Shown here piece by piece: positions 18,601 through 56,586 of a DNA stretch of 64,000 nt. The translations under genes were made by a program, and so were the position numbers. The notes beneath the pieces were generated by a model, which ran no database searches, was not told where the DNA came from, and saw only the letters and a list, made by a program, of their open reading frames with translations. Each line of letters starts with the position of its first letter. The first letter of the stretch is position 1. The stretch comes from a virus: the IMG/VR virus record IMGVR_UViG_3300045988_137103; one strand, given 5' to 3'.

Positions 18601-20032
18601 CATTCTTCCAGATGTACTCAGCACTACCCTTAGGCATCATACCCTTAATCTCCAACTGATCGAGTTCATTTTTAAGAACAGAATTGATCATCGGCTTGAA
18701 CTGCTTAGGATCACTACTCTGAGTGCCATTCAAGCCATATCGCTGCATCACCTTAAATGCCGCATTGCTCATATCATTCAGGAACTCCGGATTCCGGTAG
18801 AGCCTGCCAAACTTCTTCTGCAAACTAGAAAGCACCTTTGCAGGATCCTTGGCCTCGTTTGCCTCATACTGAGCACCAAGTGCTGTACCCAGACGAAGAT
18901 TAGCCGGAATAAACTGGCTTCCTTCCATTCCCTCCGTAAATGCCTTACTGCCTGCCTCCTGAGCCTTGTTGTACTCATCCACTACAGATGGATTCACATA
19001 CTTACTGATAACGCTAGAAAGCGCATCATTGATGTCCTGATTCATCAGTCTGTCCTGCACATGCTCATCATGAGAATAGAGGCGTGTAGCAATACCCTCA
19101 GCGATGTCACGATAGTTCGGGCCATACTTGTTAACCAAACTCTGCACCATAGCTGGTTTCAAGAATTGTCCCACATAGTCATCATAGCTGATACCCATGC
19201 TGTCAGCCTCCTGCTTCAACTTATCCTGCACACCATGGCTATACCATTGTGCTTCGATACTCTTCTCAGCATCCTGCACAGTATCATCAGGCAAAGAAGA
19301 AACAACCTGGTTAGTTACGTCCATGGCTGAACGGTTGGCATATCTGCCCAGAGCAGACTGCACCATCTTAACAGCCTCCTCATTGTTATTGGCAGTACCA
19401 TCAGCTAACAAGTCGGCAACCATATTTTCGAAGTAAGTACCCTGCTTATCCGGTCTCTGCTTCCAGTTCTCCAGATAGTTGGCAAACTTGGCATCCATCA
19501 TGCCTTCATTATTCACCACACCAGTTGGAGTTGTAACAGGAGCCACTTCCTTAGATTCAGGAGAAGCGTGCTGCACAGTACTTTGCGGTTGATTATTGTT
19601 CACACTTGGCTGGTTAGCCTCTTGTGGCTGATTGTCTCCACCAAACAAGCCTGAAACAGTAGAAATCATCTTTCCTGGCATTTCCTTCAATTTATCCACA
19701 AAGTCATTACCAAAGTCTTTCACTGCTTCGGGAACCCTGTCTTTTCCTTCATTAGAAGAAGACGGATGCGCTGAAGGTTGCGCCACCTGCTGTTTTGTCT
19801 CAGTAGAAGCACTCTGATTCGTAGCAGAAGTAGATGGAGCTGGCTCCAACACCATCTTATCAAAGTCTGCCTGTGTTCCTACATCATAACCCATGTTCTT
19901 GGCCTCATTGTAGTACCAGTCACGATCTTCCTTGTTGTTCAAGTCCTTTTTAAAGTCATCATAGCTACCTACTTCATAGCCATTGTTCTTGAACTCATTA
20001 TAAAAATATTGTCTGTCTTGCTCGTCAAACAT
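3602..20032 (-). CDS. Giant polyvalent multi-domain protein (5,476 aa), putative packaged/ejected virion protein
   Basis: Single uninterrupted 16,431-nt ORF. One frame carries a PPase-like module, three zincin-type HExxH/HExxxH motifs, an R-S-ExE-like segment and a full C5-DNA-methyltransferase motif set. All + strand ORFs inside it are antisense shadows. Confidence 0.85.
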   Translation of the reverse strand: MFDEQDRQYFYNEFKNNGYEVGSYDDFKKDLNNKEDRDWYYNEAKNMGYDVGTQADFDKMVLEPAPSTSATNQSASTETKQQVAQPSAHPSSSNEGKDRVPEAVKDFGNDFVDKLKEMPGKMISTVSGLFGGDNQPQEANQPSVNNNQPQSTVQHASPESKEVAPVTTPTGVVNNEGMMDAKFANYLENWKQRPDKQGTYFENMVADLLADGTANNNEEAVKMVQSALGRYANRSAMDVTNQVVSSLPDDTVQDAEKSIEAQWYSHGVQDKLKQEADSMGISYDDYVGQFLKPAMVQSLVNKYGPNYRDIAEGIATRLYSHDEHVQDRLMNQDINDALSSVISKYVNPSVVDEYNKAQEAGSKAFTEGMEGSQFIPANLRLGTALGAQYEANEAKDPAKVLSSLQKKFGRLYRNPEFLNDMSNAAFKVMQRYGLNGTQSSDPKQFKPMINSVLKNELDQLEIKGMMPKGSAEYIWKNGLGNTIVGKITRKAVQTDYQNWLEDIANQQYQPGFWENVASGALTFAGDAWSYWLPGAAGGKLTKSMVAKAEGKLAGDLMAKGMERKMAERAAKVLIGKSKAAALKGGAAHGAVTFGGQSAISKPIDEIYRTGQFDENGKIYNPSVGKVIANTLGEVAKQSAVGAIMQGGTIANMVGKGRGLATNILADIGGKVVDSGIMTGQQLLERMAHDPNFKPTGKDAAETFLESGANLLSIGFPGFVGKYARFKDAREFNKKFDFTDQDIAELKRFGYDGLRDAFEKMGIGEYAMVGENAQRLDGQLTQKYMDLMNDKSVPEVLKAKMMAVVEGKRPSSFSPIVDSIIVQPMDNGGKVYLETLNKDGGVVDRKEYSSLDEAQKADKKLEYDKTLGLASVLEGEFHNEFTQEHLDGLYNKAAQKYNMGEKLTDEDKAAVYLHQNAGAIKEIMDKQQKGVILTDEEQKQVNAYRHYYDSALENSSVMREFVNTFEDSHGVARGTLRKALESKDKKYAPLVESYLKELYNSIELKREMKQIEDDKKRIEQGDVDGAKPPTPVEGPASVEGSASGQEPPVSEEPAPYQDRTNSVPTPSDAEVAANPANSAAEGAGNEPKVASSDAFVMGQNAYKNGDSEALQAIDYNSDLATGRLKRAFADNEKMPDIVANAYNEGRDMEQFVAQRASLTPAQKEAISKYVEAMDAKKGAIDALQHADDGYGEALKQQLWPYQTEDGNIVSATLDSGKQVFLKKANEYGGAFVVVPDEQGQPMIKQVSNAEIKEVGTPVSLDEYIENAVAQQKDARAQQFISQFDGSGLKPNDQVTVAMEEGDANINMTFAGYSKDGKIVLTDGKDYLPLSKEEFAAWRKNALDNTINEHLDAEDDEREQKAVSQAEADKKQRYANGIVGLSEGQPDYSSKDTDPNVAAEYLQEQFGEDHGKLLNLVNGSRDDIKTQLANKRKAAIEYQNWLDTNSDLDPEKAKKVEDELSLVNEQIADLDARFKNWNTIRNSVMTPDEVKAMKEERKAEVEKAGVDESAIVPSDDFHVLVLDDKELKKQYPTMDEATDYITSQRKDIYHTQEDVERKINGVNDMLDQYINGETELDPSQLMELNTTKAQLEALQTNLSVAAKGLKAQANKLSRLYKTEVSKQEMEKLGMTPSEQRKALVADALKKNDMKAIHEIYKDASVDVMDLTPQTLEEAVSESLLPHSLNPESLQYELGKSNFKFGIGKGYDSNKFNYLIAKKGTGMSVNEFAVRVYNDLPVNLQDMGYTDQDVRNTLLDMFKSYDCVKEMRNVALMNRIAAAEDELSSEEEYYEAQKEREIIERQAEIEKYKSYIHEKELSLPPESELDHINGLEFDRMMEIEDREREYKQYVKSILPELADYDDRSNEEGYGGGSSLGSDSSRRGVDEGNSQGEEVGNGEASSESEIGEGSDSGRKGRQETGSMEPGEGSAVRGSHLPQEASFGERLKSAIAETETEPTEAQKKAGNYKKGHLSFGGYDYTVETPKGVTRSGKDEQGKPWSVTMHDTYGYILGKIGVDGDHIDMFINDAADLDTFDGNVYVVDQVNPETGEFDEHKVMYGYPSEEAATEAYLANYSKGWKGLGKVTSVPKTTFDKWLESSDRKTKPFAEYAMVQKEQAKFDRDVKEVKPSEMTEAQKVAYDTVSTMLKKAGIPVKVVSNEDMEKVAEAQDNLAVEMLLNDPRLRFYIKTPEQKEAAKAAYDWAAKNRPDKFKQYAIVNMDNPNQPPQYFEKKDLAEKWRKYYTNAWKIGNYKAFNLNKPFEEQIKDVKGDVPSEFDPYKAESLLNKRIELEKQIKETEDSYNAKKKERAEYQNQLMQDYMDQHGLSSENDIPDDVWTDYRDKSFEKYQDTLDDLFHKYVELDNQLKAVAEPGVQYLKGKGVVYGYTDGKQIVLNAEHLNPNTPIHEYQHLWRTAAKNMNPELIEHGDKLIMQTQLFADLKKDPNYKHLSDDEICDEAFARLTGEDGEAILEQMAKDAIKENPLDTAKELSVINKLKEWLKKFWYWTLETFTKWKPEDIKKMTLEDIRNLVLRDLANGVDPRNVLKGQMTKDEAVSLRQQMADNAEPERILEHTEDNWLQDFGKDGRVNTPIGSIKLGENQYKKAGREDRIKRFGLLKPTLERPDVILEKPAPKEGAERQTKYLFVKSFKKVDGTKILNFESITVKQGEDEVSISAHQIEPSKLLKELTESKMLWNRFRGDSNSLGENQGSALTPSANNPSGKDSVLNPHSDAKIRNSFEITKENGGNLSVEDKIKAVSQQFGVDEADVAMYANAVKKGSTAEAARARANIKRHLMQVNEGNIFSFKDVVKYTKPINEALKENFGDLDAMIEERIKQVEAERNAMEAARKRAEEEEAKRKKHLEELSLIPDDKLDKQYMDALSKGDDATAREMLDEAARRKGYDDTESAYQGVGAWAAPRNPGYESDKARRDDWESSGSDVNLEDMALGYTPQPDDYFSHPERYSQNTPHGLESVKAINTAIDAIKNGEKDVKVKVYRAVPTSVKEGKLRNGDWVTPSKKYAEMHGTNRLEGKYRIIEDEVPATQLWWDGNDANEFGFDDGKEYKYKNAKNNRKLNDLVTYDDEGDVIPPSKRFNSRKSDIRFMFAGEKGAAEADKADERTIRMDNLDVAKQMEEAKKDAKVIKMATGWEKGVDGKWRYEMPDAKIKDTIDVGGGNIVKRFEEDMLWTDGKLEDAVDAPKLFEAYPQLKNIKIHTDAVMNDMPSNGEYNPQTKTITIHADELKYLNSILNHEIQHVIQREEGFAHGGTPEQVERDFNAAKVEWKARSYAFELEEKAKEMGGEYNQSAVEKALIQEYKDMDMPEFIPDKETRIKGFNYFARGYADRSMDDAIKRFRLDRFQRTDFDSYQEYRKLAGEVESRNVEKRLGMTDEERRNSLASETEDVNRDEQIVMNGNDASYSIVKDPETIKKLDKEDTVKVYRAMQVGEDGKLYPPMAAKVKGKFVEPIELGKWEQADERPELADDKGMFTLNKGNGKSLKAAYNPYLHTSRTPLNDQFSEAQNRPNIVTVEVEVPKSELTSGYKADKAKDAVGEVEWKAGIIQGQLTGKRKVVLSRWDKPVRIVPDSEVADVIVNDMFKGKNITMPSNVVTPSLRKELEKRGVPFVETDNRGRIVGGENDGVHYSKVYGKNAQSPILEQKLKKHPDSLMKAGTYFSGGGLVEEGLKGIIDPVVAVEYDRKISGVYRNNFGQHIVTADVRDVDPKELVKQIDGEVEYFHASPVCKNYSQAKSNSGEVELDKETAKSTADFIDAVKPRVVTIENVKGYKDSEAMKIITQALDKNGYKWDVDVYNAADFGGYTSRERLIVRAVKDGELPEKPKKQPRKGGWLEAVEDILPTLTVKESGVAPWMDARLKVDGIDWQKVEKPLYVMGSAYADGKIPHAYGDEILPTLRTKSGDVIIMPGGKVLRADGRVLARITGLGDDYKLPKTESLAHTIIGNGIPVQLTQGVIAPLLNKDDLSGRNVLARLGSSIFKNNWDADKQKQVSDRVVNTANKLGGAEATVYTSVDEVPDAYLSDVKNGATGWYDPTTHTVHVYLPNCADANEAERTVLHEKIGHEGMEVLLGGEDGVRKFANFVYRSVGKDVRGKIIDFANKYDPDWKNPDRMNVGTQEYIAHLAEEGPKTAEDFSLWTKIKHYLIKVLKKLGVRVPGLLNDKDLRYYLMKAGKALHVWDEMPQEKQEAMMKQASNAEIKDALGDGAGKGKPRQKKGESTIQYMKRVQEWRKWQNAREDKENPEPPMFYDIDKDEVGKKEWAKLNKDWRERHHLVGEEPTGMPIRMEGEEDAAYMNRIHEYEKWQSAMKDQEDPLPDMFAFEKKKQEEVKRKYEDWLAKHDLLEQQQADLDLYEGKIYPAETNPKADALEQQVMQDLAEVTSTDVSKEGAAKTVKHAVIHRRKNMEEASADDAIYINDVKNRIEKMADSGVFDKLLSDYKGKKNRAEKLAETIPYIIEAPRRLRDMAQNLNATGVFDKGHIHIQPADVEAIQPYVTDLITETAKKHTEIKKGKEIEVYDDPKAVSEVASKMAQAINANHQGEEGFVPCDGTDILSKHVLKLVKERVVPGRINYKELSPEMQAAIDSIRDWYNYTYDWLMDNHTLKAGTGYNVDYVNHIWDKEKSDPEAYATFVENRQRTKSPNEKKRTISTLMEGVYAGLVPKTTDITKMMAYYSRSNIEAWANKTMLQELTGLNVIERNEKGEVISTDPLLSSSAPFNLEQYKYFEIPGVGPVWVYNVSPKQVKVKNPITDNEKVLYSEASAGDRFGVVFDTYQSSPFWKTFDTLASSAKKLELGFSGFHAGALTEVYMVQNMVEFGPKKAMANFMKYIFADTAKNHELPCFANPEDFQEAASHLVKFGATNDYAAADVQNMFDNMRDAMIKVQKKLKDGNKISGTVAKASMPLKVATQMLSLINKGMDVALWDFLHDGLKLATYRMRADKTKERAKKKGWTEEELSRALDEDGQFVNDMFGGQHWDVLGASHRTLRYAGRVLLSSDWNASTTRHFLALTGFGSIWNEATFENFKQYYKRLKHKELAPEDEGRRSRQISALLCYGIGFMVFYEGIANGINAAFRALDEEKERKKAEEIRKTNPSYKSMYELAYGDEGIKWYDYLMRGNSLGQQSKIFLGRYEDGTEMYVRHGKQFREVPEYLFNHKGELEFPGPMVQRMIGKANPMVRMTLDDINYLSDFQASHADQEIQRKYGKTIGLLYKDALYWAPFLIPSQENKEFKAVDFFFPSSKGFSPWKAQSYFKDFILSGDMEGVVMTYQSCQRNGIDPEAQIKAAIGSVKALESAEMSDGVTSLQEASKRFDTAKSITEKKKMRQKMKKFLSQSDYKAFTQKEALDMVQGYLNGDEDLKEMEKAESKYLIKAKAEDVTEDWRIQNVWNGTMETYQEYQRLKDVDKAKANAFKNSKTNKRLFAARKAISAARRKMNKAKKQMDGTNDAAKLVEIRNTRKELLKTLNGME
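7817..7837 (-). other. Third metallopeptidase-like motif HEKIGHE inside the giant ORF
   Basis: Context AERTVLHEKIGHEGMEVLLGG. Confidence 0.4.
8150..9050 (-). other. C5-cytosine DNA methyltransferase domain inside the giant ORF
   Basis: Motif I YFSGGGLVEEG (about 9017-9031), motif IV HASPVCKNYS (Cys codon about 8825-8827), motif VI TIENVKGY (about 8706-8714), motif VIII GYTSRERLIV, motif X IIGNGIPVQL (about 8171-8182). All lie in the ORF frame and in canonical order. Confidence 0.8.
10286..10300 (-). other. Zincin-type metallopeptidase motif HEIQH inside the giant ORF
   Basis: Context LNSILNHEIQHVIQREEGFAHGG. HExxH followed by a downstream Glu. Confidence 0.5.
10870..11080 (-). other. Candidate ADP-ribosyltransferase-like segment inside the giant ORF
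   Basis: VKVYRAVPTS ... DWVTPSKKYA ... YRIIEDEVP gives Arg, Ser and ExE in the order and spacing of R-S-E ARTs. Weak, motif-level only. Confidence 0.3.
12821..12835 (-). other. Zincin-type metallopeptidase motif HEYQH inside the giant ORF
   Basis: Reverse complement reads CAT GAG TAT CAA CAT in the context NTPIHEYQHLWRTAAK. Confidence 0.45.
13750..14155 (-). other. Inorganic-pyrophosphatase-like domain inside the giant ORF
   Basis: Translation ...NYKKGHLSFGGYDYTV...MHDTYGYILGKIGVDGDHIDMFIND...EFDEHKVMYGY... parallels the family I PPase core (NYGYI...DGDPvDvlV). Confidence 0.5.
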
Positions 20033-22543: not shown

Positions 22544-24007
22544 CTATTTTATGTCCCTGACTCGTTCAAAGTACTTCGTCTGGTCCTTGGTGATATTCTT
22601 CACCTTGATCTGTATCGTGCAGTTCTTAGGCACAGTATCATTTATGCTGGCCATGAGCTGCTCTATTATCTCATCTGTGTTCTTGTAGCCCTTGCCATCC
22701 ACATGAGCCACAACCTCGCCCATGAAGTAGGCATCAGCACAAAGTTCAAACGTCTCCTCGACCTTATCAAATTCAGGCACATGATACTCCTGCATTCGCC
22801 TGCTTGGATCATTGGTAAAGAAGACCTTCTCCACCACCTTCTCATTTAGTTCCCAAGCCCTAGAGAAATCTGGCTTCACATATCCGCTTGTTATCCTATG
22901 AGCTGTTGCATGATTCATAGCAAAGCCAATCTCTGCATAGTTGGCACCAATATCATTCTGGGCTACTGTGGCCCAAGTGTGCCGGAATGTATAAGGAGTA
23001 TAAAAATTATCATCAGGCATACCCAAATAGTTCTTACAGATAGCTTTAATGAAATGTACCAAATTCGTATCCATAGAACGATTAGTGGAATACATTTTAT
23101 GAAAAATAAATAGATAAGGGTCACTTTCCTCAGAAAAATATTTCTCCAAGGTTGGTAAAAGCATATCCGGCACCCTCATTTCTATATACGCTTTATCATA
23201 ACGACGCGTACTTGTTTTCTTTCTCTCATAGTGCAAGATTCCATCATAATAGTCCACCTTTTTCATTTTCATGAGGTCAGCTACATTGATGCCAGCCAAG
23301 CACAATATCATCTTGCAAACATCCAGAGCCAACTGCTGCCGTGGATATTCAGGAGTAACGGCAAAAAACTTTCTACACTCCTCCAGCGATATGGCACGCT
23401 TGTGTGGACCTGCTTTTTTCTCTATCTTTATCTTATTCCAAGGATTGAATTTTATTGGCATAAGACCTGCCTCCTCATCATTAAATTTCTTGATACCTTC
23501 CAAATAAATACGCTTAACCAAAGAAGGATAATAATTTCTGCTACTAGGCTTATTCTCCATGGTTTTCATCCATGCTGTCAGAAAACGTACAGTTAAGTGC
23601 GAAAACATTACCTTATCAGTACCAGCAAAGTTTTCCAAATGTTTCAAAGCACTTTCATAAATTTGGCGTGATGAAGGCTGCAAAGAAAGTGATTGAAGAT
23701 AAGAACGAGCAAATTCAGAAAAACAAATATCCTGGGCAGAAGTCAAAAGGTAATCTCTAACCTTATAAACAGACCAGTCAGTTATATCAAGTCTGTTCAA
23801 TTTGTCAACCCAGCCATTTATTTGGCTCATACAGGCTGCGAGCACGAATGAGTCCTTCACCTCTTTCGTGCCCTTAACCAATCCTTTGTCTGTTACAAAC
23901 TTATCGGTCTTAACTACCAACTTTTGACGGTTATGCAGTATTCTAATGTAAACTGGATAATAACCATCAGAACGTTTCTTTGAAACTACCACTTTAAATG
24001 TTGCCAT
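22544..24007 (-). CDS. int: Tyrosine recombinase / phage integrase
   Basis: N-terminal arm-binding-type region MATFKVVVSKKRSDGYYPVYIRI. C-terminal catalytic region ...YTFRHTWATVA...AMNHATAHRITSGYV (R...HxxR...Y). Start moved to the Met at 24007. Confidence 0.85.
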   Translation of the reverse strand: MATFKVVVSKKRSDGYYPVYIRILHNRQKLVVKTDKFVTDKGLVKGTKEVKDSFVLAACMSQINGWVDKLNRLDITDWSVYKVRDYLLTSAQDICFSEFARSYLQSLSLQPSSRQIYESALKHLENFAGTDKVMFSHLTVRFLTAWMKTMENKPSSRNYYPSLVKRIYLEGIKKFNDEEAGLMPIKFNPWNKIKIEKKAGPHKRAISLEECRKFFAVTPEYPRQQLALDVCKMILCLAGINVADLMKMKKVDYYDGILHYERKKTSTRRYDKAYIEMRVPDMLLPTLEKYFSEESDPYLFIFHKMYSTNRSMDTNLVHFIKAICKNYLGMPDDNFYTPYTFRHTWATVAQNDIGANYAEIGFAMNHATAHRITSGYVKPDFSRAWELNEKVVEKVFFTNDPSRRMQEYHVPEFDKVEETFELCADAYFMGEVVAHVDGKGYKNTDEIIEQLMASINDTVPKNCTIQIKVKNITKDQTKYFERVRDIK

Positions 24008-24270
24008 ATTACCATATTTTTTTGCAACTGTTTTGCAACATTGCATTGCACATGTCCTATTTAACGTGTCAAACGTAAAATTTTAGCACGAAGATAAGTG
24101 CTTATACATCAATACATTAGATATATATAGCTGATATTCAGATAATTATCAAAAACCATGATATAAAATCACAGTTTTAATCATATTACCCTTTATTTAC
24201 TAATACCCTATAATGTAGTGCGCAACTATCTTGCAACACATTGCGATTTATTATTTACTAAATTATTTTT

Positions 24271-47439: not shown

Positions 47440-48306
47440 TTACTGATAGCCACCTGCTACACCTGCGCCACATCCGCAACCGCCATTCATCAGATTGGCA
47501 AGGTAGATGTTCTGCTGCAACTGCGAGTTCTTAAACTTCAAGTCCTGAATCTCGTTAGCTTGCTCCTGGCTCCAATGACCTGTCAAGGTATCGATGATAC
47601 GCTGGGTGTTGTTCTCACCTGCACGGATGATGTCACACTTGTCTTGCTGCATCTGGAAACCGAGGTTCGAAGCTGCTCTTTCTATACCAGTGTTGGTATA
47701 GCTAAAGCCCTGCTGCATCTGGTTAACGATGTCCTTCTGACCAAGCTGGTTGTCGTACCCCATCTTGATGATGTTCTGCTGCGTCTGGCAGCAGCAATCC
47801 TTCAATGCTATGGTCATCTGCAAGTTACCCTGCGAGATAGCGTTAATTACTCGCTCTGCCGAGAATCCTACCTGACCGCCAAGCTGCTGGATGCCTGCCT
47901 GGATGCCACAGATAGAGTTCTGCAAGGCGTTGAAGTCACAGTTCAGATTGCTTGCTAACATCTTAAGGTCGTTGCCATTACCCTGGATGGCACCCATCAG
48001 CAAGTTGCTGTTTTGGTTGTCTGCCATCTGGTTGCGCAAACTTTCAATTTGGCTCTGAATCTCCGCACGCTGTACGTCTGCACCGTTGTCACGATTGTTC
48101 CAGTCTGCACCATACATATAGCGCATCATGCCCATCATCATCATGTAGGCAAATGGATTGTTCCACATGTCGGCATCGTCACGGTCTCGCATCATAGCTG
48201 CCATTGCCAAAGGATTGTTGTTGTCACGATTTGCCATCGCTCCAAGCAAACCACCCATCATTGCATCGTTGCAACAAGAGGTAGTCTTAATTACTTCTTC
48301 TGCCAT
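47440..48306 (-). CDS. Met/Asn/Gln/Cys-rich protein of unknown function (288 aa)
   Basis: ORF with striking composition: MMMMGMMRYMYG, CC and CCC clusters, Q/N-rich middle, GGCGCGAGVAGGYQ C-terminus. Confidence 0.6.
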   Translation of the reverse strand: MAEEVIKTTSCCNDAMMGGLLGAMANRDNNNPLAMAAMMRDRDDADMWNNPFAYMMMMGMMRYMYGADWNNRDNGADVQRAEIQSQIESLRNQMADNQNSNLLMGAIQGNGNDLKMLASNLNCDFNALQNSICGIQAGIQQLGGQVGFSAERVINAISQGNLQMTIALKDCCCQTQQNIIKMGYDNQLGQKDIVNQMQQGFSYTNTGIERAASNLGFQMQQDKCDIIRAGENNTQRIIDTLTGHWSQEQANEIQDLKFKNSQLQQNIYLANLMNGGCGCGAGVAGGYQ

Positions 48307-48504
48307 AATTCCTAAAGTAATAAAAGTTTTACATTTTGTTTATTAACACATGTAACCGATTACGGCAGCAAAGTTATCCCAAAATATCTACATGTTTCAT
48401 AACTCTGTCAAACATTCTTTTAGTGGCTGAGTTCCAATGATTTAAGGTGACATAGACCCATATCAAAAAAAGAGAAGCCTCATCAGCTTCTCTTCATTAT
48501 TCTG

Positions 48505-48687
48505 TTATTTACCCATAAAATAAGTGATGATGGTTCCAGCAATCACTATCACATTGATAAATGTTAGCCACGCAAACAACCACTTCTTGCGTTTATAATC
48601 TCCTGTCCACCAAACAAAGATATTAAACGAAACGCTCAACATTATAATGATAGCACACTCTACAAATAAAAATGTTACCATATTCAT
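48505..48687 (-). CDS. Small two-TM membrane protein (60 aa)
   Basis: Hydrophobic ORF. Confidence 0.45.
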   Translation of the reverse strand: MNMVTFLFVECAIIIMLSVSFNIFVWWTGDYKRKKWLFAWLTFINVIVIAGTIITYFMGK

Positions 48688-48713
48688 ATCGCTTATCCGT
48701 GTTGCGATAGGGC

Positions 48714-49064
48714 TTAGTTCTTGTTTCTTTTCAGTCTTTTCTTGATAAACTCCTTAACGTCCCACTTCTTGAAGAAATGAGAATGATCCCCAGCGTTCCC
48801 CACGCTCTCCAGCTCCCCATCAGCGATAGCCCTTCTTAGGGTAGATTCGCTGATATGCGCCTCCTTCTTCACCTGTCCAGCAGTCATCATTGGGTTGAGA
48901 GCATACGGCAGATAGTTCTCACAAAGGTCTTCTATCTCATCGCTACTCATTCCGCAAGCAGTTACCTTCTCCCCTCTCTTCTCTTGCTCGTCTGCTCGAA
49001 AGCAAGAGTCAGACAACGATTTTAATAACACTCCCGCGGTGTGATAACCAAATAACTTTCCCAT
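48714..49064 (-). CDS. HTH DNA-binding protein (excisionase/MerR-like), 116 aa
   Basis: MTAGQVKKEAHISESTLRRAIADGELESV is an Xis/MerR-type helix-turn-helix pattern. Confidence 0.55.
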   Translation of the reverse strand: MGKLFGYHTAGVLLKSLSDSCFRADEQEKRGEKVTACGMSSDEIEDLCENYLPYALNPMMTAGQVKKEAHISESTLRRAIADGELESVGNAGDHSHFFKKWDVKEFIKKRLKRNKN

Positions 49065-49068
49065 ATCA

Positions 49069-49620
49069 TTATAATCTAGAGATTAAACTTTGACAGCCCT
49101 TGCCTGAGAAATACTTATCAGCAAACCCATATACATAAAATATAATGGTCATTACAAGTATTACAACATTAGCTTCCAACATTTCGTTGGTAGTAAAAAC
49201 ATTCCAATATACAATGTGTATAGCATTAATACCGAATAGGTATATAATCATAGGAATACGCCATCTGTAGCAGAGCCAGAAGAACCTACTTGCAAGTATA
49301 AGCACAAGCGGATGGATGTAAACTGAGAAATATATAAATGCTGCCGATACCCAATTCTCCTTAAACCATACGCACATTTCTTTTTCATGAGACGCAAATG
49401 TTACCATGCATGCAATATGAAAAAGCATGATAAACAGAGGCATCACTTCACAATAATACTTGAACCAAGTGAGTAGCTTCACGCTGTAGCCTCTACCTGC
49501 AAGGATAATGACGTTAATCATTTCGCTAACGTCCATACCCTTAAACATTACTCTTGACAACTGTACTACACCGACTGATTGAACTAACCGATGGACTTCA
49601 TCTTCTTCCTCTTTAGTCAT
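49069..49620 (-). CDS. Multi-pass membrane protein (183 aa)
   Basis: Four to five hydrophobic segments. Confidence 0.55.
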   Translation of the reverse strand: MTKEEEDEVHRLVQSVGVVQLSRVMFKGMDVSEMINVIILAGRGYSVKLLTWFKYYCEVMPLFIMLFHIACMVTFASHEKEMCVWFKENWVSAAFIYFSVYIHPLVLILASRFFWLCYRWRIPMIIYLFGINAIHIVYWNVFTTNEMLEANVVILVMTIIFYVYGFADKYFSGKGCQSLISRL

Positions 49621-49938
49621 AAATTCTTCTCCTTTTGTTTTTGGGTTTATTATTTGTTCTTAGTTCCTCATTCTTAATAATAAGGAAAGTGCTGCAAAAA
49701 TAAACAATTCTGCACAAAAACATTCATTTTGTGCCATTTTTTATAGTTAAACTTTGCTAAAGTAACAATCCGTAAGCAGATATTAGCGGAGCTTACTAAT
49801 AAACACACCATTTGATTGATTGATTGACACAGTTTTTTATGTAGTATTCAGATAGAGGTTATCTCTTCTACTATGTCGTTTCCTCTCATGTAAATTTCTA
49901 CTACCTTATGCTGGCTGATGATGCGACTGATTTCACTC

Positions 49939-51210
49939 TCACTTGGAATTTCGTTTAATATTTTTATTTGACGTTTCTCGTAATCCATAGTAATTATCCA
50001 TTAAAAATTCGAAATCTCTGCTATTTTTCTTCTTTAGCAGCTTTCGATTAATCATATCTCTCTTGTATTTATTCTTTACGCAAACACATTCATAATGACC
50101 TTTGATATAAAGATGTCTGTAAAATCTTAAATCCATTTCTAACATAACACACTTTCTGATCTCGTAGCTGTCGCAGTGTCTCATTAACCCAAGATAACTG
50201 TTGATAGAGCAAATGTAATGTTGCAACTCCTCTATGCTATAGTTTTCGGGTAATGTGTTCATGTGATGTATCAATTGCTTAAAATTACTCACCATGCGGT
50301 TACTGGCATAAATTCTATCTCGTTTCACTACCATGCCTGTAAACTTGATTCCCTTGTATACGGATTGCAGCTCTATCTTCCTTGGATGTAAGGTCACACC
50401 TATATTGGCAAGATATTTTCTTATTTTAGGCGCAGAAGCTAGTAATACTTGCTTATCCTGATGAATCAGGAAGAAATCGTCAACGTATCTACCATGATAA
50501 TAGATATGCAGAATTATTTCAAGCATCCAGTCAAAATCGTTAAGCCAGAAGTTGGCATCATGCTGGCTTGTAAGATTGCCGATAGGAAGACCGTGATTCT
50601 CCTTCGCCCCTCGCAAAGTTTTGCCTAGTGGTACTTTTGCCATAGATTCTTCAGAAGAACGCTTAATACAGTTCTTTGTCGGATCGTTCATTATTGTGAC
50701 ACGAGATAAGTAGCGCAAGTCTTCTATATCATCACCCTTGTAATTATCTACAATAAAAGCATCCACTTTATCAGCGAGTTCTGTTCTCGGAATACTCATA
50801 AAGAAGCCTTTCATGTCGCATTTCAAATACCAGCACGGCTTGGTAAAGTTCTCGGAACATTCTTTGATGTCTGCTGCAAGTTGTTTTACTCCATAGAGTT
50901 GACCCTTACCTGTGCGACAATTATATGTTCTATCACTAAACACTCCTTCAAACAAAGGTTCTAATCTGAGCGCAATATAATGATGGATAACTCTATCACG
51001 AAAATTAGCAGCGAAAACCTCACGGTAAACAGGTCGAGAGACAACAAAGGTAATGGATGGCATCGGCTCATAAGTCCTGGAGTTTATCCTTTCAACCAAA
51101 TCCGTTATATTTTCGAATAAGTACGTTTCAAACCTTATTGCATCTGGCGATGATGCCTTGCCTTTTCGGCAGTCTTCGTAGGCTGCCATTATATATTCTG
51201 CCTTTACCAT
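49939..51210 (-). CDS. DGR reverse transcriptase
   Basis: RT motifs: NFRDRVIHHYI, NCRTGKG, KCDMKGFFMSI, LPIGNLTSQHDANFWLNDFD (DGR-specific [I/L]GxxxSQ), RYVDDFFLI. Confidence 0.9.
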   Translation of the reverse strand: MVKAEYIMAAYEDCRKGKASSPDAIRFETYLFENITDLVERINSRTYEPMPSITFVVSRPVYREVFAANFRDRVIHHYIALRLEPLFEGVFSDRTYNCRTGKGQLYGVKQLAADIKECSENFTKPCWYLKCDMKGFFMSIPRTELADKVDAFIVDNYKGDDIEDLRYLSRVTIMNDPTKNCIKRSSEESMAKVPLGKTLRGAKENHGLPIGNLTSQHDANFWLNDFDWMLEIILHIYYHGRYVDDFFLIHQDKQVLLASAPKIRKYLANIGVTLHPRKIELQSVYKGIKFTGMVVKRDRIYASNRMVSNFKQLIHHMNTLPENYSIEELQHYICSINSYLGLMRHCDSYEIRKCVMLEMDLRFYRHLYIKGHYECVCVKNKYKRDMINRKLLKKKNSRDFEFLMDNYYGLRETSNKNIKRNSK

Positions 51211-51240
51211 TACTATTATCTCCCTAACTCTCCTAACTAG

Positions 51241-51368
51241 TGCTGTAACAGGACGAACCCGATTCGAATTGTCAACCTTACCGTTGTTGTTCCGATTGCC
51301 ATTCGAGAAATTCAGATTCCACGCATTCGTGCCAGAATTCTCAACGCACGACCAGTAATTCGTCCGCT
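51241..51368 (-). repeat. DGR template repeat (TR)
   Basis: 128 bp, 113/128 identical to 52006-52133. Read on the minus strand it is rich in AAT/AAC codons at the mismatched positions. Confidence 0.9.
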
Positions 51369-51519
51369 ATTTTCTCGCTCTTTATTATACATCTTAGCTG
51401 CTTCGCTACACCGAACAAATGATGATGCGACTTGACAGCAGCGAGACCATTATTTATGGAGAATCACATTCTATAATAAGCCTTGACCTAATTATACTCT
51501 AGCTTTATTCGAAGAAGGA

Positions 51520-51867
51520 CTAACCTTTCTTCGAATTTCCCCAAGCTGTAGCCTGTCTACCGATGGCGGTTGTCAGTCTGCAAATATCAGCAGCTTGCTT
51601 CTCTGAGAATAATTTCCTCTTGAAGCAAAGGCGAAGGACAGTTTTGAGGAGTTCGAATTTTACTCGGAATCCCATCATATACTGATGCCTGTTATCCGCA
51701 TACATATTCGCTAGCTGGATGTACTCGAAAAGTTCAAGAGCAACGCTTGTCATTTTCTCACCCAAATCGTAACGATACATTCTCGGAAAGCTAACCTTCA
51801 TCGCGGTGAGTTTATCGACCAATTCAAACGTATCTTTATATATTTGTAAATCCTTCGCTAATGCCAT
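51520..51867 (-). CDS. avd: DGR accessory variability determinant (Avd-like four-helix-bundle protein)
   Basis: 115-aa basic helical protein between the target and TR. The sequence style is that of the Avd / 23S-rRNA-IVS protein family. Confidence 0.75.
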   Translation of the reverse strand: MALAKDLQIYKDTFELVDKLTAMKVSFPRMYRYDLGEKMTSVALELFEYIQLANMYADNRHQYMMGFRVKFELLKTVLRLCFKRKLFSEKQAADICRLTTAIGRQATAWGNSKKG

Positions 51868-51953
51868 AGATATTCCAGCTTATTGCCACTAATTATTCGT
51901 GATATTGTTATTATTTATATGTTCGTATCTCTCTATCTCTTAACCTTGCTTGA

Positions 51954-51968
51954 CCGACCTGCGGTCGG
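51954..51968 (-). promoter_or_regulatory. GC-rich hairpin downstream of the VR
   Basis: CCGACC-TGC-GGTCGG, 37 nt 3' of the VR end on the coding strand. Same position as the hairpin/cruciform that assists homing in characterised DGRs. Confidence 0.5.
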
Positions 51969-51999
51969 AAAGAGATAAAGAGGTGAAGAGATAAAATGA

Positions 52000-52776
52000 T
52001 TAAAATGCTGTAACAGGACGAACCCGATACGAAGTGTCAACCTTACCGTCGTAGCTCCGATTGCCAGTCGAGAAACCCAGACCCCACGCACGCGTGCCAG
52101 AACCCTCAACGCACGACCAGTAATACGTCCGCTGCAAGAGTGATACAGACTGCTTTCCAGCATCCCTGATACGCTGTAGGGCGAGATTGATAGTCTCGAA
52201 GTGCTGATGGATGAGAGATAAATCTCCCATCGTTGGCAACCACCAGTGATGCTTGCCAATCTGGCATATCTTGCTACCTTCAGCACGCTTCGTCATATAG
52301 TTCCAGCAGTATGCAACCGCATACGTTGCAGGATCATCGTTCTTATAGTAGCTGCTCGCCATGACGCCAGCAGTACGTGTTGCACCATCGAAGGTATTCA
52401 TGTCGCCTGATGTCTGATACCCGACAGAGCTGCTATTCTGCACGCTTCCCCATTTCATCGCTGCCGACGGCTCAGTCAGAGCAATACCCAGTCTGTAGCC
52501 ACCATGCTGGATAACGATAGCATCAGCATCGGCAGATGAAATGCCAATTGATGTTGTCTGCCATGGTTCTATGCGCATGTACGAGCCGATATTGTCGGTA
52601 TCGCCTCCGCTCTGCGTTCCCCATCCGTCATTCTGTATCTTACCGATATACACTCCATCCTGCAAAGGACGAAGGTTCTGATTAAGATAAGCCTGCATGC
52701 TTGCCTTGCTTGCGTTCGTGACCGCTTCTCCGTTCTGAGATAGCCAGTCACTCATTCTTTTTGTTTTTATTCCCAT
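52000..52776 (-). CDS. DGR target protein, C-type-lectin-fold / DUF1566-like receptor-binding candidate (258 aa)
   Basis: The VR occupies the last 43 codons (...YYWSCVEGSGTRAWGLGFSTGNRSYDGKVDTSYRVRPVTAF). Upstream HHWWLPTMGDLSLI resembles the DUF1566 W.LPT..EL motif. Follows the fibre-like genes. Confidence 0.8.
   Translation of the reverse strand: MGIKTKRMSDWLSQNGEAVTNASKASMQAYLNQNLRPLQDGVYIGKIQNDGWGTQSGGDTDNIGSYMRIEPWQTTSIGISSADADAIVIQHGGYRLGIALTEPSAAMKWGSVQNSSSVGYQTSGDMNTFDGATRTAGVMASSYYKNDDPATYAVAYCWNYMTKRAEGSKICQIGKHHWWLPTMGDLSLIHQHFETINLALQRIRDAGKQSVSLLQRTYYWSCVEGSGTRAWGLGFSTGNRSYDGKVDTSYRVRPVTAF
52006..52133 (-). repeat. DGR variable repeat (VR)
   Basis: 15 mismatches to the TR. Every one falls where the TR has T on the + strand (A on the coding strand). 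The 3' 23 nt are identical to the TR (IMH-like). Confidence 0.9.
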
Positions 52777-52794
52777 TTTACTTCTGTGTTTATA

Positions 52795-53961
52795 TTAACT
52801 AATTTCATCACTGGCATCTACCAGAAAATTCAAATCCTTTGCACTACAAATTGATATGTCAAATTCAGCCTCTGTGCTGACGAAATTACCAGACATACCA
52901 ATGTAACCACAATTAAACCGTATTTGATTTGATGTTTTGTTTATCCATATCAATCTTCCAATTCTAGGAGTAATATTAACAATAGCATCCCCAGCAGCAC
53001 CATTAAACCATTGTGATGGTAATGTAAGCGTGTATTCTCCTCTATCATCATAGGTGATACTCATTTTTCGATTGTCGAATGTTAGCTGACTCATCGTTAC
53101 AGTACCGGTATCTTTTATTTGCTTTCCTGTTATATGAGCATAAGCAAGAACATGTGAACTGTGTCCGTACAGGTATTGCGTCCCAATATAGGCTCTATTG
53201 AGTACTATCCATCCATAGAAGGTGTCTGGGGTTCCATATCCCAGCAATTCTACAGCTTCCCTAGATATAACTAGTTTTTTCTTCTTCACACCGTCCTCGT
53301 AGAAATAACATCCATCTGGGGCACTAATAGTTCCATACATATCGGCATATTCTCCATTCCAAAGATAGTTGACAAGTGTGACTCTACGACCACTCTGATT
53401 GGTAGTCCACTTAATGCTGAAGTTGTTGCCAAAAATATGGTTCCATCCAGATTCATCTGAAATAAGAGCAACATTGTCGCTATAATCAATATCCGTAGAC
53501 GATGACGCTAAAGTGAAAGGCACTCTTGTGGATCCTGTTATCTTTACATTTTCAAAATTACCACTCTTGCACACAATTCCATCTTTATCCGCCTTGAGAA
53601 GAACATTACCATTTCCTTCACCTTGGTCTGTGATAAGGATATTGTCAACACCAAGGTTATGGATATACGCCTTCCGTGCAAGGAATAGTCCAGTTGCAAG
53701 CCGCTTGTAGTCTGTGATAGGCTTGAAATAAATCGTGTTCGTAGGTACGACACCATTTCCCTTCACGAATGATCTGATGCACTGGTAAATGTTATCTCCA
53801 TACAGAACAATGTCAATCCACTGCTCATCTCCTGTACCTGATTCTATTGCGGATCCATCGGGGATGTCTTCCCAAGGGCGAGGGCGTTCTGTTGCGCCCT
53901 TCGCTCCTTTTTCTATCTCTGCAATAGATCCAGTCGTTGTTGCTAAGATATTACTTCCCAT
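52795..53961 (-). CDS. Tail fibre/spike-like protein (388 aa)
   Basis: ORF in the late block immediately upstream of the DGR target. Beta-rich composition. Assignment by context. Confidence 0.5.
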   Translation of the reverse strand: MGSNILATTTGSIAEIEKGAKGATERPRPWEDIPDGSAIESGTGDEQWIDIVLYGDNIYQCIRSFVKGNGVVPTNTIYFKPITDYKRLATGLFLARKAYIHNLGVDNILITDQGEGNGNVLLKADKDGIVCKSGNFENVKITGSTRVPFTLASSSTDIDYSDNVALISDESGWNHIFGNNFSIKWTTNQSGRRVTLVNYLWNGEYADMYGTISAPDGCYFYEDGVKKKKLVISREAVELLGYGTPDTFYGWIVLNRAYIGTQYLYGHSSHVLAYAHITGKQIKDTGTVTMSQLTFDNRKMSITYDDRGEYTLTLPSQWFNGAAGDAIVNITPRIGRLIWINKTSNQIRFNCGYIGMSGNFVSTEAEFDISICSAKDLNFLVDASDEIS

Positions 53962-53964
53962 AGG

Positions 53965-55068
53965 CTAATCTGATGTTTGAATAATATAGGTTGCTCCACC
54001 ATGACCAACAATCATTTCGCTAGTAACCTCAAAGGTTTCTGCAGGAGTTTCGAACTTCTGCAGCGAAACACCGGCATTGTCGTAAATCCACATCTTGAAC
54101 TTTTGATTTTTGACGGTATTACGTACACCATTATCATTATACCAGAGAATAGGCTTGTAGTAGATGGTCTTTCCATCTCCTCGGGTAAACTGCTCCACTG
54201 TAGGGAATCCGTTTTCGTCACAAGGGTTTGCGTGAATATTATAAGGGTCGGAAGCATCATTTACAGTCTGCACGTCCTGACCATACAAGTCGTCATTCTT
54301 ATATACTTCTACTTTAACCAAAGCAGATGAATTTACCTGAGACTCCAATATCGTGAATACATCAGATGTTTCTGTCTGTAGGGTCCATGCTCCACTTTCT
54401 TCAATATACCATTTAAATGTATATCCAAGACCTGCGGCAGATTTGTTATCAACCTGTGCCCGAAGTTTACAAGTTCCGTTCTTTGTGCGAATGGTAAAAT
54501 AATTAGTATCACCTGCAACAATCGTTACCATCTTGGTGTTTTCTGTTCCAAGGGTAATTGATACCTGGTATGCACTTGATAGTTTAACAGAAGAGTTAAC
54601 AACGGAAACATCTGCCTCACCTCTAATAAGGAAGGAATTGCATCCGTTCACCTTTACAAGGTTTTTATTTACTTGCAAAGCTTGAACTTTAATGTAGCCA
54701 CTTTCAGCGTCACCAATCTGCTGCGTTGTCTTTGTGAAATGACCAGTATCCCCACCGAAGGTGTTTTTCGATACTCCCTGCGAATCAAACAGGATTTCAG
54801 TAGTACCAATAAACCAGTGCATGTTAGCATTTTCTATGGATGCGAGACCATTTCCACTACCAACCTCGGAAGAGTAGGCCAGAAAAACTAACATAGGCTT
54901 GGTTACTCCACTGGCTTCAAAGTCAGGAGCAATATTTGTGGGCGCATCAGCATCACCAAGATATGTTTGATATAAGTCACCTAATTGACATTGTATAACG
55001 GTATAGAAAGTAGTACCATTGCTTACAACGGTAATCTGTCCGGTTGTAGACGCTTTTGCATTAACCAT
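53965..55068 (-). CDS. Structural protein, Ig-like/beta-rich (367 aa)
   Basis: ORF in the late block. Confidence 0.5.
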   Translation of the reverse strand: MVNAKASTTGQITVVSNGTTFYTVIQCQLGDLYQTYLGDADAPTNIAPDFEASGVTKPMLVFLAYSSEVGSGNGLASIENANMHWFIGTTEILFDSQGVSKNTFGGDTGHFTKTTQQIGDAESGYIKVQALQVNKNLVKVNGCNSFLIRGEADVSVVNSSVKLSSAYQVSITLGTENTKMVTIVAGDTNYFTIRTKNGTCKLRAQVDNKSAAGLGYTFKWYIEESGAWTLQTETSDVFTILESQVNSSALVKVEVYKNDDLYGQDVQTVNDASDPYNIHANPCDENGFPTVEQFTRGDGKTIYYKPILWYNDNGVRNTVKNQKFKMWIYDNAGVSLQKFETPAETFEVTSEMIVGHGGATYIIQTSD

Positions 55069-55351
55069 TATTCACCTCGCTTTCCTTTTTAGCAGCATCC
55101 TCTTTTACCTCATCAGGGTCATAGCACTTTGCTGGATTTTCTGTAGTACCATCAATCTCCATACGAGCCTGCTCTGGGGTGAGGAGTGCACCACCGACTT
55201 TCTCTGCACGTTCACTAAGTGTAAGCCCAGTCACACCATTCAAGTCGCTTTGAAACAAAATAATGTTTCCATCAGCACTTTTTGTGCCAGTTACGAAAGA
55301 AGGAAGAATCCTCTTCTTCACCTCTGGCTTAACTTTTACATAATATGCCAT
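55061..55351 (-). CDS. Small structural-module protein (96 aa)
   Basis: ORF. 8-nt overlap with the downstream gene. Confidence 0.5.
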   Translation of the reverse strand: MAYYVKVKPEVKKRILPSFVTGTKSADGNIILFQSDLNGVTGLTLSERAEKVGGALLTPEQARMEIDGTTENPAKCYDPDEVKEDAAKKESEVNNG

Positions 55352-55368
55352 ACTGAATTATATTTAGA

Positions 55369-56586
55369 TTAAACAATTACTGGCTTTTCAATGATTCTAG
55401 CATCTTCATCTACGAGATAGCTGCCTTCATCGTCAACCATAGCTGCGGTAGCACCACGATCACATATCTCCAGTTGAACAAACTTAGCCTTATCTGCTTC
55501 TACAGAAATTTCAGCTCCAGTACCGATGAGAGTTTTGGTTGTTGAAATGCTACCATCACTATTCCTGGCAGAAGTACAGATATACCAATTAGCGAAAGCT
55601 ATGCTCTCCCAATTAGGTATCTCACCTTGCGTGTCAGAGACTATCGCTTTCAAAAGAATATTCACGTTACCGGTTACCCTTGCATTGGAATTGGTGAACA
55701 TTGCTCTGATTGGAGGAAAACATCTTATGAGGGTAGTAGATGCAACAGGATCACCCGGCTCTGGTTCAGACGGAAGATTTCCATCTGTTCTGTAAGCACA
55801 CTTAACTTCATAGGTGATTTCCTCTCCCATTTTATCGCGGTCTACTGTGATAGACTTAATCTGACCATTTTCCCCAGTCGTAGCAGATGTTATCTCCCAG
55901 TTTTCTTCATCATCTACGCTAGTGATTAGTTTCTTGGTCTTATCGTTCATTACTCGATACCAGAAAATCTTTACCTTTGTGCTTTCCGTCATATTATGCG
56001 AGCCTACCATTACCAATGCTTTAATTGTTCTGGTAGGCTGTTGACGGAAGGGGTTCCATTTATCGGTGTTAGGCATATCAAGAGTTATGGAAGCTCTGGC
56101 ATCCGTAACATCTTCTAGTACCAAAGGAATATCCTTTGTAAACCTGTAAGAATATCCGCTAACGGAATCCTCCCATGTGCCTACAAAACGAAGCGTTCTT
56201 CTTACGCCCACAACAGCGTTGGAACTGACGGTTATCTGTCCCTTGCTATCACCTGATACGACAACCTGATAACCTTCCTTTGTACTTCCACTCTGCGTGG
56301 CAATTTCAGTCTGTCCCGATGATGTAACCTCAATCCATCTGAACGAAGCGAGGGAAGAGTTTACCATGATAGACGAGACAGGGCTATCTGGGTCTATAAG
56401 TTGGCATTCAGGGAATACCACCAGATTAGAAGTGCTGTAGTCTGGTGTATAGAGATTGGTAACCGCATCATAAGTCTGGCGGTTAACTGTATTAGTCCTT
56501 ACAACCATGTTGCAGCATTGATGATAGCATACCGGCTGAATGTCTATCTTCTTTTGTTCTGACTGCGCTAAAATATTATTTGCCAT
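55369..56586 (-). CDS. Structural protein, beta-rich (405 aa)
   Basis: ORF in the late block. Confidence 0.5.
   Translation of the reverse strand: MANNILAQSEQKKIDIQPVCYHQCCNMVVRTNTVNRQTYDAVTNLYTPDYSTSNLVVFPECQLIDPDSPVSSIMVNSSLASFRWIEVTSSGQTEIATQSGSTKEGYQVVVSGDSKGQITVSSNAVVGVRRTLRFVGTWEDSVSGYSYRFTKDIPLVLEDVTDARASITLDMPNTDKWNPFRQQPTRTIKALVMVGSHNMTESTKVKIFWYRVMNDKTKKLITSVDDEENWEITSATTGENGQIKSITVDRDKMGEEITYEVKCAYRTDGNLPSEPEPGDPVASTTLIRCFPPIRAMFTNSNARVTGNVNILLKAIVSDTQGEIPNWESIAFANWYICTSARNSDGSISTTKTLIGTGAEISVEADKAKFVQLEICDRGATAAMVDDEGSYLVDEDARIIEKPVIV

Follow-up and report, generated by a model that had tools for sequence, protein, structure and literature searches.

Does the region between positions 49,939 and 52,776 of IMGVR_UViG_3300045988_137103, a virus record of IMG/VR, hold a diversity-generating retroelement (DGR) that is complete and still at work, and which protein does it diversify? 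The question arises from an initial annotation of a 64,000-nucleotide stretch of this record (the whole of the DNA analysed here, which we call the window). That annotation had described a reverse transcriptase (RT) gene, an accessory gene and a template repeat (TR) whose adenines are substituted in a variable repeat (VR) at the end of the gene for a lectin-fold protein. DGRs form a known class that is strongly enriched in gut phages, and about 31,000 of them have been catalogued. The existence of one more is unsurprising, and the value of this one lies in its being an unusually clean natural example. From its anatomy and the turnover of its VR, and by analogy with characterized systems, we regard the locus with high confidence as a canonical, intact and currently active DGR of a temperate phage of Segatella (Prevotella) copri.

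Cassette anatomy and turnover of the variable repeat

All genes of the cassette lie on the minus strand, and the bases of TR and VR are given here as read on that strand, which is the coding strand. The cassette runs in the canonical order target (52000-52776), avd (51520-51867), TR and RT (49939-51210), and the open reading frames (ORFs) agree with the program-made ORF list, as had been proposed. The RT, of 423 aa, matches Pfam RVT_1 (67.9 bits against a cut-off of 29.6, E 1.3e-18) and phrog_1423 (1.6e-80). Both of its diagnostic motifs could be located: IGNLTSQ at residues 210-216, which has the motif-4 form [I/L/V]GxxxSQ of DGR RTs, and an intact catalytic YVDD (YxDD) at 242-245. In tblastn its identity with the RTs of F1/F2/F4, DGR phages of Bacteroides, is 44-51%, and Bordetella phage records match more weakly; among NCBIfam models no family was above threshold for the RT, group II, retron and Drt all lying far under their cut-offs. 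The small ORF between target and TR, initially described as Avd-like, encodes a 115-aa accessory variability determinant (Avd), with a score above the Pfam cut-off for PF22296 bAvd (51.4 bits, cut-off 40) and a match to phrog_3206, 'Avd protein of DGR' (1.2e-20). It thus belongs to the four-helix-bundle family of DGR accessory proteins.

A repeat search within 49000-54000 returned a single long direct repeat, consisting of the TR (51241-51368) and the VR (52006-52133), each of 128 nt and on the minus strand, with 88% identity and a sharp loss of similarity at either border. Compared base by base the two copies differ at 15 positions, and at 15 of 15 the TR base is an adenine (A to G at nine, A to C at three, A to T at three). 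This reproduces the coordinates, length and adenine bias of the initial annotation. With 35 adenines in the 128 nt of the TR, the chance that all 15 mismatches would fall on adenines is (35/128)^15 = 3.6e-9. Read in the frame of the target, the TR holds 12 AAY (Asn) codons, of which 11 are altered in the VR, where Y, G, R, G, G, T, S, Y, D, T and Y replace the asparagines, exactly the residues that had been listed. The VR encodes residues 216-258, the last 43 of the 258-aa target, at the 3' end of the gene. The TR, 765 nt away, is non-coding: it lies outside any ORF, with an in-frame stop codon at its start, and the RT ORF begins 30 nt downstream of it. An adenine-tolerant scan of both strands of the whole 64-kb window found no further VR, in agreement with the single VR first noted.

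The final 23 nt are the same in TR and VR, the last mismatch being at index 104 (0-127). This 3' end had been called IMH-like, after the initiation of mutagenic homology (IMH) of the Bordetella phage BPP-1. The identity holds and the likeness is loose, the 23 nt being not GC-rich and lacking any TR/VR difference of the IMH versus IMH* type.

The adenine bias extends to related loci. In 29 TR/VR pairs, 394 of 414 pooled mismatches are at TR adenines: the VR is changed at 394 of 1,069 A sites (36.9%), as compared to 3 of 736 C sites (0.4%), 10 of 1,049 G sites (0.95%) and 7 of 858 T sites (0.8%). At the protein level, all 12 TR-Asn codon positions are hypervariable in 120 homologues of the target (2.3-3.2 bits of entropy, with 10-14 residue types each), and the adenine-free codons between them are invariant across the same homologues.

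The initial annotation had made its reading depend on variation that is present and confined to TR adenines. As a population proxy we used contigs near-identical to the window, which fall into three sets (L034, L037, and L035 with L036), and the outcome favoured a DGR. Contig L034, aligned over 3,077 nt, has 18 differences in the VR, all 18 at TR adenines, and only 3 in the ~2,950 nt outside it (99.9% identity); its TR is identical to that of the window. L037, aligned over the same length, has 14 differences in the VR, 12 of them at TR adenines, none in the TR and 3 elsewhere. In L035 and L036 the alignment is of 813 nt and does not cover the TR; the only difference is 1 in the VR, at a TR adenine. 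The density of substitutions in the VR is thus more than 100-fold that of the flanks, with the TR unchanged. Identical TRs together with 14-18 changes in the VR versus 3 elsewhere imply that the VR turns over much faster than the background diverges, and that it has done so very recently. Read from these differences between assemblies, the retroelement is active in nature.

The two remaining differences in the VR of L037, T to C and G to C at the equivalents of 52032 and 52023, are at non-A positions of the TR and fit either low-level non-A errors or ordinary mutation.

Not all adenines of the TR change. In the 29 pairs those of the last 6 nt of the repeat, of E224 (GAG, 52103-52105) and of K245 (AAG, 52037-52041) are never altered. 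Those of neighbouring AAY codons are altered in 30-80% of pairs. The constancy of the last 6 nt fits integration of the cDNA at the 3' end of the repeat. AAG is the sole in-frame TR codon that can mutate into a stop codon. The constancy at K245 and E224 is probably due to purifying selection on structural residues; protection of these adenines against mutagenesis is the alternative.

By analogy with BPP-1, the RT-Avd complex would bind an RNA that runs from the avd-TR spacer through the TR into the beginning of the RT gene. The RT would misincorporate opposite adenines while copying the TR into cDNA. This cDNA would then take the place of the VR at the 3' terminus of the target gene, with the 3' stretch that both repeats share and a conserved GC-rich hairpin 37 nt downstream as guides. 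The 12 Asn codons randomised in this way would belong to the face with which a DUF1566/Lcl_C lectin-like domain binds its ligand. The randomisation would be stop-free, because AAY codons cannot mutate to a stop, and could give, as an upper bound, ~10^14 to 10^17 protein variants.

The diversified protein, its neighbours and rival readings

The target (258 aa, 52000-52776, minus strand) consists of an N-terminal helix, a beta-rich middle domain and a C-terminal DUF1566/Lcl_C C-type-lectin-like domain that bears the VR. Over 1,100 homologues of it are found in metagenomes, of which the best 120 share 84-100% identity, and for many relatives in this range a match to PF07603.18 is precomputed. No NCBIfam family was above threshold for the target. 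The structure prediction that the initial annotation suggested gave a confident AlphaFold model (pLDDT 88.8, pTM 0.83, from 56 homologues). In Foldseek searches this model matched 4eps (E 4.4e-4, prob 1.00) and 8q4e_A (prob 0.98), with snake-venom C-type lectins as weak matches further down. The fold that is modelled for the VR-bearing domain agrees with these solved Lcl_C/DUF1566 structures, and a sequence profile searched against solved structures likewise had its best match in the Lcl/4eps type (E 0.032). In BFVD the fold resembles that of DUF1566 proteins from crAss-like and other phages (E 1e-11 to 1e-6), including the ends of annotated tail fibres. The DUF1566/C-type-lectin-like C-terminus first proposed is thus borne out by the modelled fold, and its sequence matches Lcl_C/DUF1566 below the Pfam cut-off.

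Upstream of the target lies a co-oriented block of genes, on the minus strand. Directly adjacent is a mosaic gene for a 388-aa protein (52795-53961), the N-terminal 37% of which recurs at 77-92% in proteins with other C-termini, and the C-terminal ~80% of which recurs at 40-60% behind other N-termini. In L034 (4024-4995) and L037 (4003-4974), which are otherwise 97.7-99.4% identical, the C-terminal part of this gene has been swapped, giving a product of 323 aa versus 388 aa, and nucleotide similarity with the window is lost between 53576 and 52776. Two types of variation associated with host range, module swapping and a DGR, therefore adjoin at this locus. The model of the 388-aa protein (pLDDT 68.8, pTM 0.44) had Foldseek matches that were all to phage baseplate or fibre proteins, at a TM of 0.18 or less. 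The product is probably a tail-fibre or baseplate component. Further upstream, two paralogues (53965-55068 and 55369-56586) with a small ORF between them (together 53965-56586) match phrog_3267, 'tail protein'. Of the earlier statement that the target follows fibre-like genes, the tail-type annotation and the mosaic gene stand, and the identity as fibres is weak, the structural model being of low confidence. A tail-module context of the target is likely. As the target is the last gene of this module, diversification of a host-adhesion or receptor-binding protein is, by analogy, its most likely function. It would let the phage track surface variation among strains of S. copri. The tail-type neighbourhood and the lectin fold agree with the receptor-tip diversification that had been proposed; the role in receptor binding is our extrapolation from them.

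The reading that competes best with this one grants an active DGR and questions its object: the target would be a hypervariable protein that is non-structural or acts in another way (for example in superinfection exclusion or defence) and happens to be encoded beside the tail module. Gut phages with non-structural DGR targets have been described, one target of Quimbyvirus having been proposed to act in superinfection exclusion or defence (PMC8008677). The window's target is small (258 aa) and has a gene of its own instead of forming the C-terminus of a long fibre, and the annotation of its neighbours (phrog 'tail protein', TM 0.18 or less) is weak. Set against this are its position as the last in a run of co-oriented tail-type genes, next to a mosaic gene with a swapped C-terminus as is typical of receptor-binding proteins; a fold common to the DUF1566 ends of annotated tail fibres and to a fimbrial tip adhesin of Bacteroides; and the correlation of VR differences with host range in the Bacuni phages. 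We consider a target outside the tail apparatus unlikely.

It is less probable still that the cassette in the window is a recently inactivated relic, its adenine-specific differences having been inherited from ancestors and the copy now being immobile. Parts have been lost in relatives: two IMG/VR contigs (L022 and L024) keep the target and the hairpin and have no RT or Avd within 4 kb downstream, and in a third locus (L018) the RT comes right after the target, without avd and TR. The window has every ORF intact and retains the catalytic motifs. In addition, the TR is identical in contigs that have 3 changes in ~2,950 nt outside the VR as opposed to 14-18 within it, and the other pair of contigs differs at one TR adenine. 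An origin of the VR diversity in point mutation with diversifying selection, or in recombination between alleles, the TR-like copy being a pseudogene fragment, would suit receptor-binding proteins, which are often under diversifying selection, and the modular recombination of the gene upstream, but it is effectively refuted by the near-identical genomes and the pooled pairs, as neither process would obey a non-coding copy 765 nt away at 394 of 414 mismatches, and this copy is invariant and lies beside an RT and an Avd.

The remainder of the window is that of a temperate phage genome, with a portal (703-2760), a tyrosine integrase (22544-24046, minus strand), a DNA methyltransferase and a replication initiator. 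The host is S. copri: a prophage in the chromosome of strain G8 (L030, NZ_CP146523 3107888-3116661) carries the same cassette, with a target 87% identical, and further relatives are found in Prevotella metagenome-assembled genomes. The window's own target is also present on a 65,055-bp metagenomic contig, and related viral contigs are of 40-108 kb. Megablast of 49800-53000 against 50,697 phage records gave no match, and the lineage was therefore placed by protein searches; for the portal, the best named relatives were BF1-TP2, BS-TP4 and BKO1-TP3, which are temperate phages of Bacteroides, with 26-30% identity. A search of the window for tRNA genes found none, and hence no clue to an attachment site.

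Two other ORFs of the minus strand stand out. One, at 3602-20032, encodes 5,476 aa of the polyvalent-protein type, with Pfam matches to InPase (PF18823, 1.7e-50), PBECR2 nuclease, LPD23 and C-5 cytosine DNA methylase. The other, at 47440-48306, encodes 288 aa of low complexity, rich in Met, Asn and Gln and with a Cys/Gly-rich C-terminal tail, and matches only a PHROG of unknown function.

Hairpin beside the variable repeat and RNA structure around the template

The GC-rich hairpin that the initial annotation placed 37 nt after the VR was found at 51954-51968 (minus strand), as a hairpin or cruciform with a 6-bp stem and a GCA loop. Its sequence is CCGACC-GCA-GGTCGG on the minus strand (CCGACC-TGC-GGTCGG on the plus strand), and it starts 37 nt past the end of the VR and 31 nt past the stop codon of the target. 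In almost all related loci it lies at a constant distance from the VR, and its stem occurs as CCGACC/GGTCGG, CCGTCC/GGACGG, CCGCTC/GAGCGG, CCGTTC/GAACGG or CCGGCC/GGCCGG, with a loop of the form G-N-A or GTTA. In an alignment of 22 sequences, pairing is kept in 97.7% of cells, two positions of the stem vary in a compensatory way (AU/UA/CG/GC at one, CG/UA at the other), and 0 of 500 shuffles reached the covariation score. The hairpin/cruciform of BPP-1 is needed for retrohoming by its structure and not by the sequence of its stem (PMC3240598), and by analogy we presume that the hairpin of the window serves as a target-recognition element. The presumed target site of this DGR combines a covarying hairpin with a VR 3' end that lacks a GC-rich IMH.

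We considered an intrinsic terminator for the hairpin and rejected it, since it is not followed by a T-run and its covarying stem keeps a constant distance from the VR. Also rejected was an extended outer stem in which CTCTTTATCTCTT would pair with AAGAGATAGAGAG; RNAalifold supported it weakly and many of its pairs are broken.

Between the stop codon of the target and the hairpin (51969-51999, minus strand), nearly all relatives have a conserved polypyrimidine tract of ATCTCTT/ACCTCTT units (TCATTTTATCTCTTCACCTCTTTATCTCTTT). A purine-rich and partly complementary stretch is located 3' of the hairpin, and RNAalifold support for its pairing with the polypyrimidine tract is weak.

Around the TR, 151 nt of non-coding sequence separate it from avd and 30 nt from the start codon of the RT. 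The longer spacer shows high conservation and adopts a fold of three covarying elements (A, B and C), which all lie on the minus strand. Hairpin A (51511-51532) lies over the avd stop codon, and its closing pair occurs as AU (7), GC (5), UA (5) and CG (1). Hairpin B (51472-51496) is a conserved RNA hairpin within the spacer. Jointly, A and B are 98.3% paired and have 9 compensatory pairs, and 0 of 500 shuffles reached their covariation score. Element C (51373-51446), of 74 nt and three helices, ends 4 nt before the TR. Its 19 bp are 99.6% paired and include 9 compensatory pairs; shuffles gave 2.4 (0 of 500), slid controls 0-2. The spacer structures are specific to the coding strand, since G-U pairs are frequent, as is expected of RNA. 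With RNAalifold on the whole putative DGR RNA we also obtained a tentative long-range duplex of 7 bp, with modest covariation, that brackets element C and the TR. Its 5' arm lies at 51460-51466 and its 3' arm at 51225-51231, 10-16 nt past the TR; it is 96% paired, with 2 compensatory pairs and 0-1 in slid controls. It resembles the 'stop' duplex between upstream and downstream segments ('cPRT stop') that the BPP-1 ribonucleoprotein shows and that has been predicted for numerous DGRs (bioRxiv 10.1101/2023.10.23.563531).

The covariance model R1, which describes element C, found no match at four more remote DGR loci of Bacteroides phages, namely Bacuni F2, MT836212, MT835523 and BS-TP1. Its matches are confined to the phage family of the window, the model having been built from close relatives (effective sequence number 1.18), and element C may be either lineage-specific or too divergent elsewhere for such a model. 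When 48500-53500 was scanned with Rfam up to an E of 1, a chance snoRNA match was the sole outcome, and no described RNA family covers the flanks of the TR or the hairpin.

In BPP-1, a 140-nt spacer 3' of the TR carries the priming adenosine as well as the elements that bind Avd and RT (bioRxiv 10.1101/2023.10.23.563531). It is conceivable, and in our view a rather doubtful proposition, that the DGR RNA of the Segatella phages is arranged differently, with the structured RNA (51373-51532) 5' of the TR, a short duplex that joins part of it to the 10-16 nt past the TR, and a priming segment within the RT coding sequence. Should this be so, and should the 5' elements correspond in function to the Avd- and RT-binding elements of the BPP-1 spacer, the architecture of the DGR RNA would be a permuted one. 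Only this structured RNA upstream of the TR may take the locus beyond the textbook DGR.

Several observations weigh against a fully canonical and active element with a target in the tail. With 30 nt between TR and RT, a downstream spacer of the BPP-1 type would overlap the RT gene; the structures found are 5' of the TR, and a cis-priming site in a 3' spacer was not located. The hairpin departs from the published consensus for phage DGRs (stems of 7-10 bp, GRNA loops of 4 nt, 4-34 bp from the VR; PMC3240598), with its 6-bp stem, 3-nt GNA loop and distance of 37 nt. Two of the family matches are below threshold: residues 168-255 of the target score 29.0 bits (E 1.4e-6) against Pfam Lcl_C (PF07603), for which the gathering cut-off is 34.9, and Avd scores 42.7 bits against NCBIfam DivGenRetAVD (NF033474), under the cut-off of 80. 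The score of the target depends on the VR variant. Furthermore, the activity is read from differences between assemblies, the tail annotations of the neighbouring genes are weak, and the target is placed in the virion by analogy. We nevertheless favour an intact and active DGR, in view of the adenine specificity and of the turnover of the VR beside a constant TR.

Comparison with known retroelements

The specialist will find moderate to little surprise in this locus, and it is mainly useful as a well-populated natural data set. It offers an intact cassette with one target, carried by a temperate phage that is widespread and infects S. copri, a key and strain-diverse species of the human gut. 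More than 1,000 variants of the target have been sequenced, and the turnover of the VR is orders of magnitude above background divergence. With a close relative in the cultured lysogen S. copri G8, DGR-driven tropism in Segatella becomes experimentally approachable, and the RNA structures 5' of the TR, together with the variant target hairpin, make it testable how far the mechanism of BPP-1 extends to the DGRs of Bacteroidota.

The closest named relatives in the phage collection are the Bacuni phages F1/F2/F4 of Bacteroides uniformis (RT 44-48% and target 30-31% identical), which have the same cassette order, a target with a 3'-terminal VR followed by Avd, TR and RT. Their targets are of the DUF1566 type and match the Bacteroides ovatus fimbrial tip protein 4eps (PMC8143477), and single-nucleotide polymorphisms between near-identical genomes are concentrated in the VR, as at the locus of the window, and correlate with host range (Hedzet et al., 2021, PMC8143477). 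In contrast to the single VR of the 64-kb window, the Bacuni phages have two VRs and targets. They are Bacteroides phages of 40 kb, whereas that of the window is a temperate Segatella phage of ~65 kb with a 5,476-aa polyvalent protein; similarity at the nucleotide level is absent, and the F2 locus is unmatched by spacer model R1.

Hankyphage (of Bacteroides dorei) and Quimbyvirus are, like the phage of the window, temperate phages of gut Bacteroidota with integrases and with DGRs that act on proteins with a C-type-lectin fold. For these phages, too, DGR activity was read from variation at A sites in near-identical genomes (Benler et al., 2021, PMC8008677). In Quimbyvirus the RT is frameshifted and there are two targets, of which one lies in a defence island, in contrast to the single intact RT ORF and the one target by tail genes described here. 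Between the phage of the window and the records of the phage collection no nucleotide similarity was detected.

Among solved structures, the best matches of the target are the C-terminal domain of Lcl from Legionella pneumophila (8q4e) and BACOVA_04982 of B. ovatus (4eps), both of them adhesin-type domains. The sequence identity is 14-17%, and Lcl is no DGR target, whereas the protein of the window is a free-standing phage protein of 258 aa.

With BPP-1 (mtd-avd-TR-brt) the locus shares the gene order, adenine-specific mutagenesis, an AAY-rich TR, an Avd partner, a VR at the 3' end of the gene for a protein of C-type-lectin fold in the tail apparatus (in the window by gene position), and a GC hairpin conserved in structure and not in sequence. 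The BPP-1 target is Mtd, that of the window a DUF1566/Lcl_C domain. The BPP-1 hairpin has 8 bp and a GAAA loop and comes right after the IMH, as opposed to 6 bp, a 3-nt GNA loop and 37 nt from the VR. BPP-1 has a (GC)14 element and a distinction of IMH and IMH*, in contrast to the 23 nt that are the same in both repeats of the window. Its structured spacer of 140 nt is 3' of the TR, whereas in the window the structured 151 nt precede the TR, and 30 nt separate it from the RT. These departures in the hairpin, the IMH and the spacer are variation within the DGR class, and the element is a clean example of a well-known system and not a new kind.

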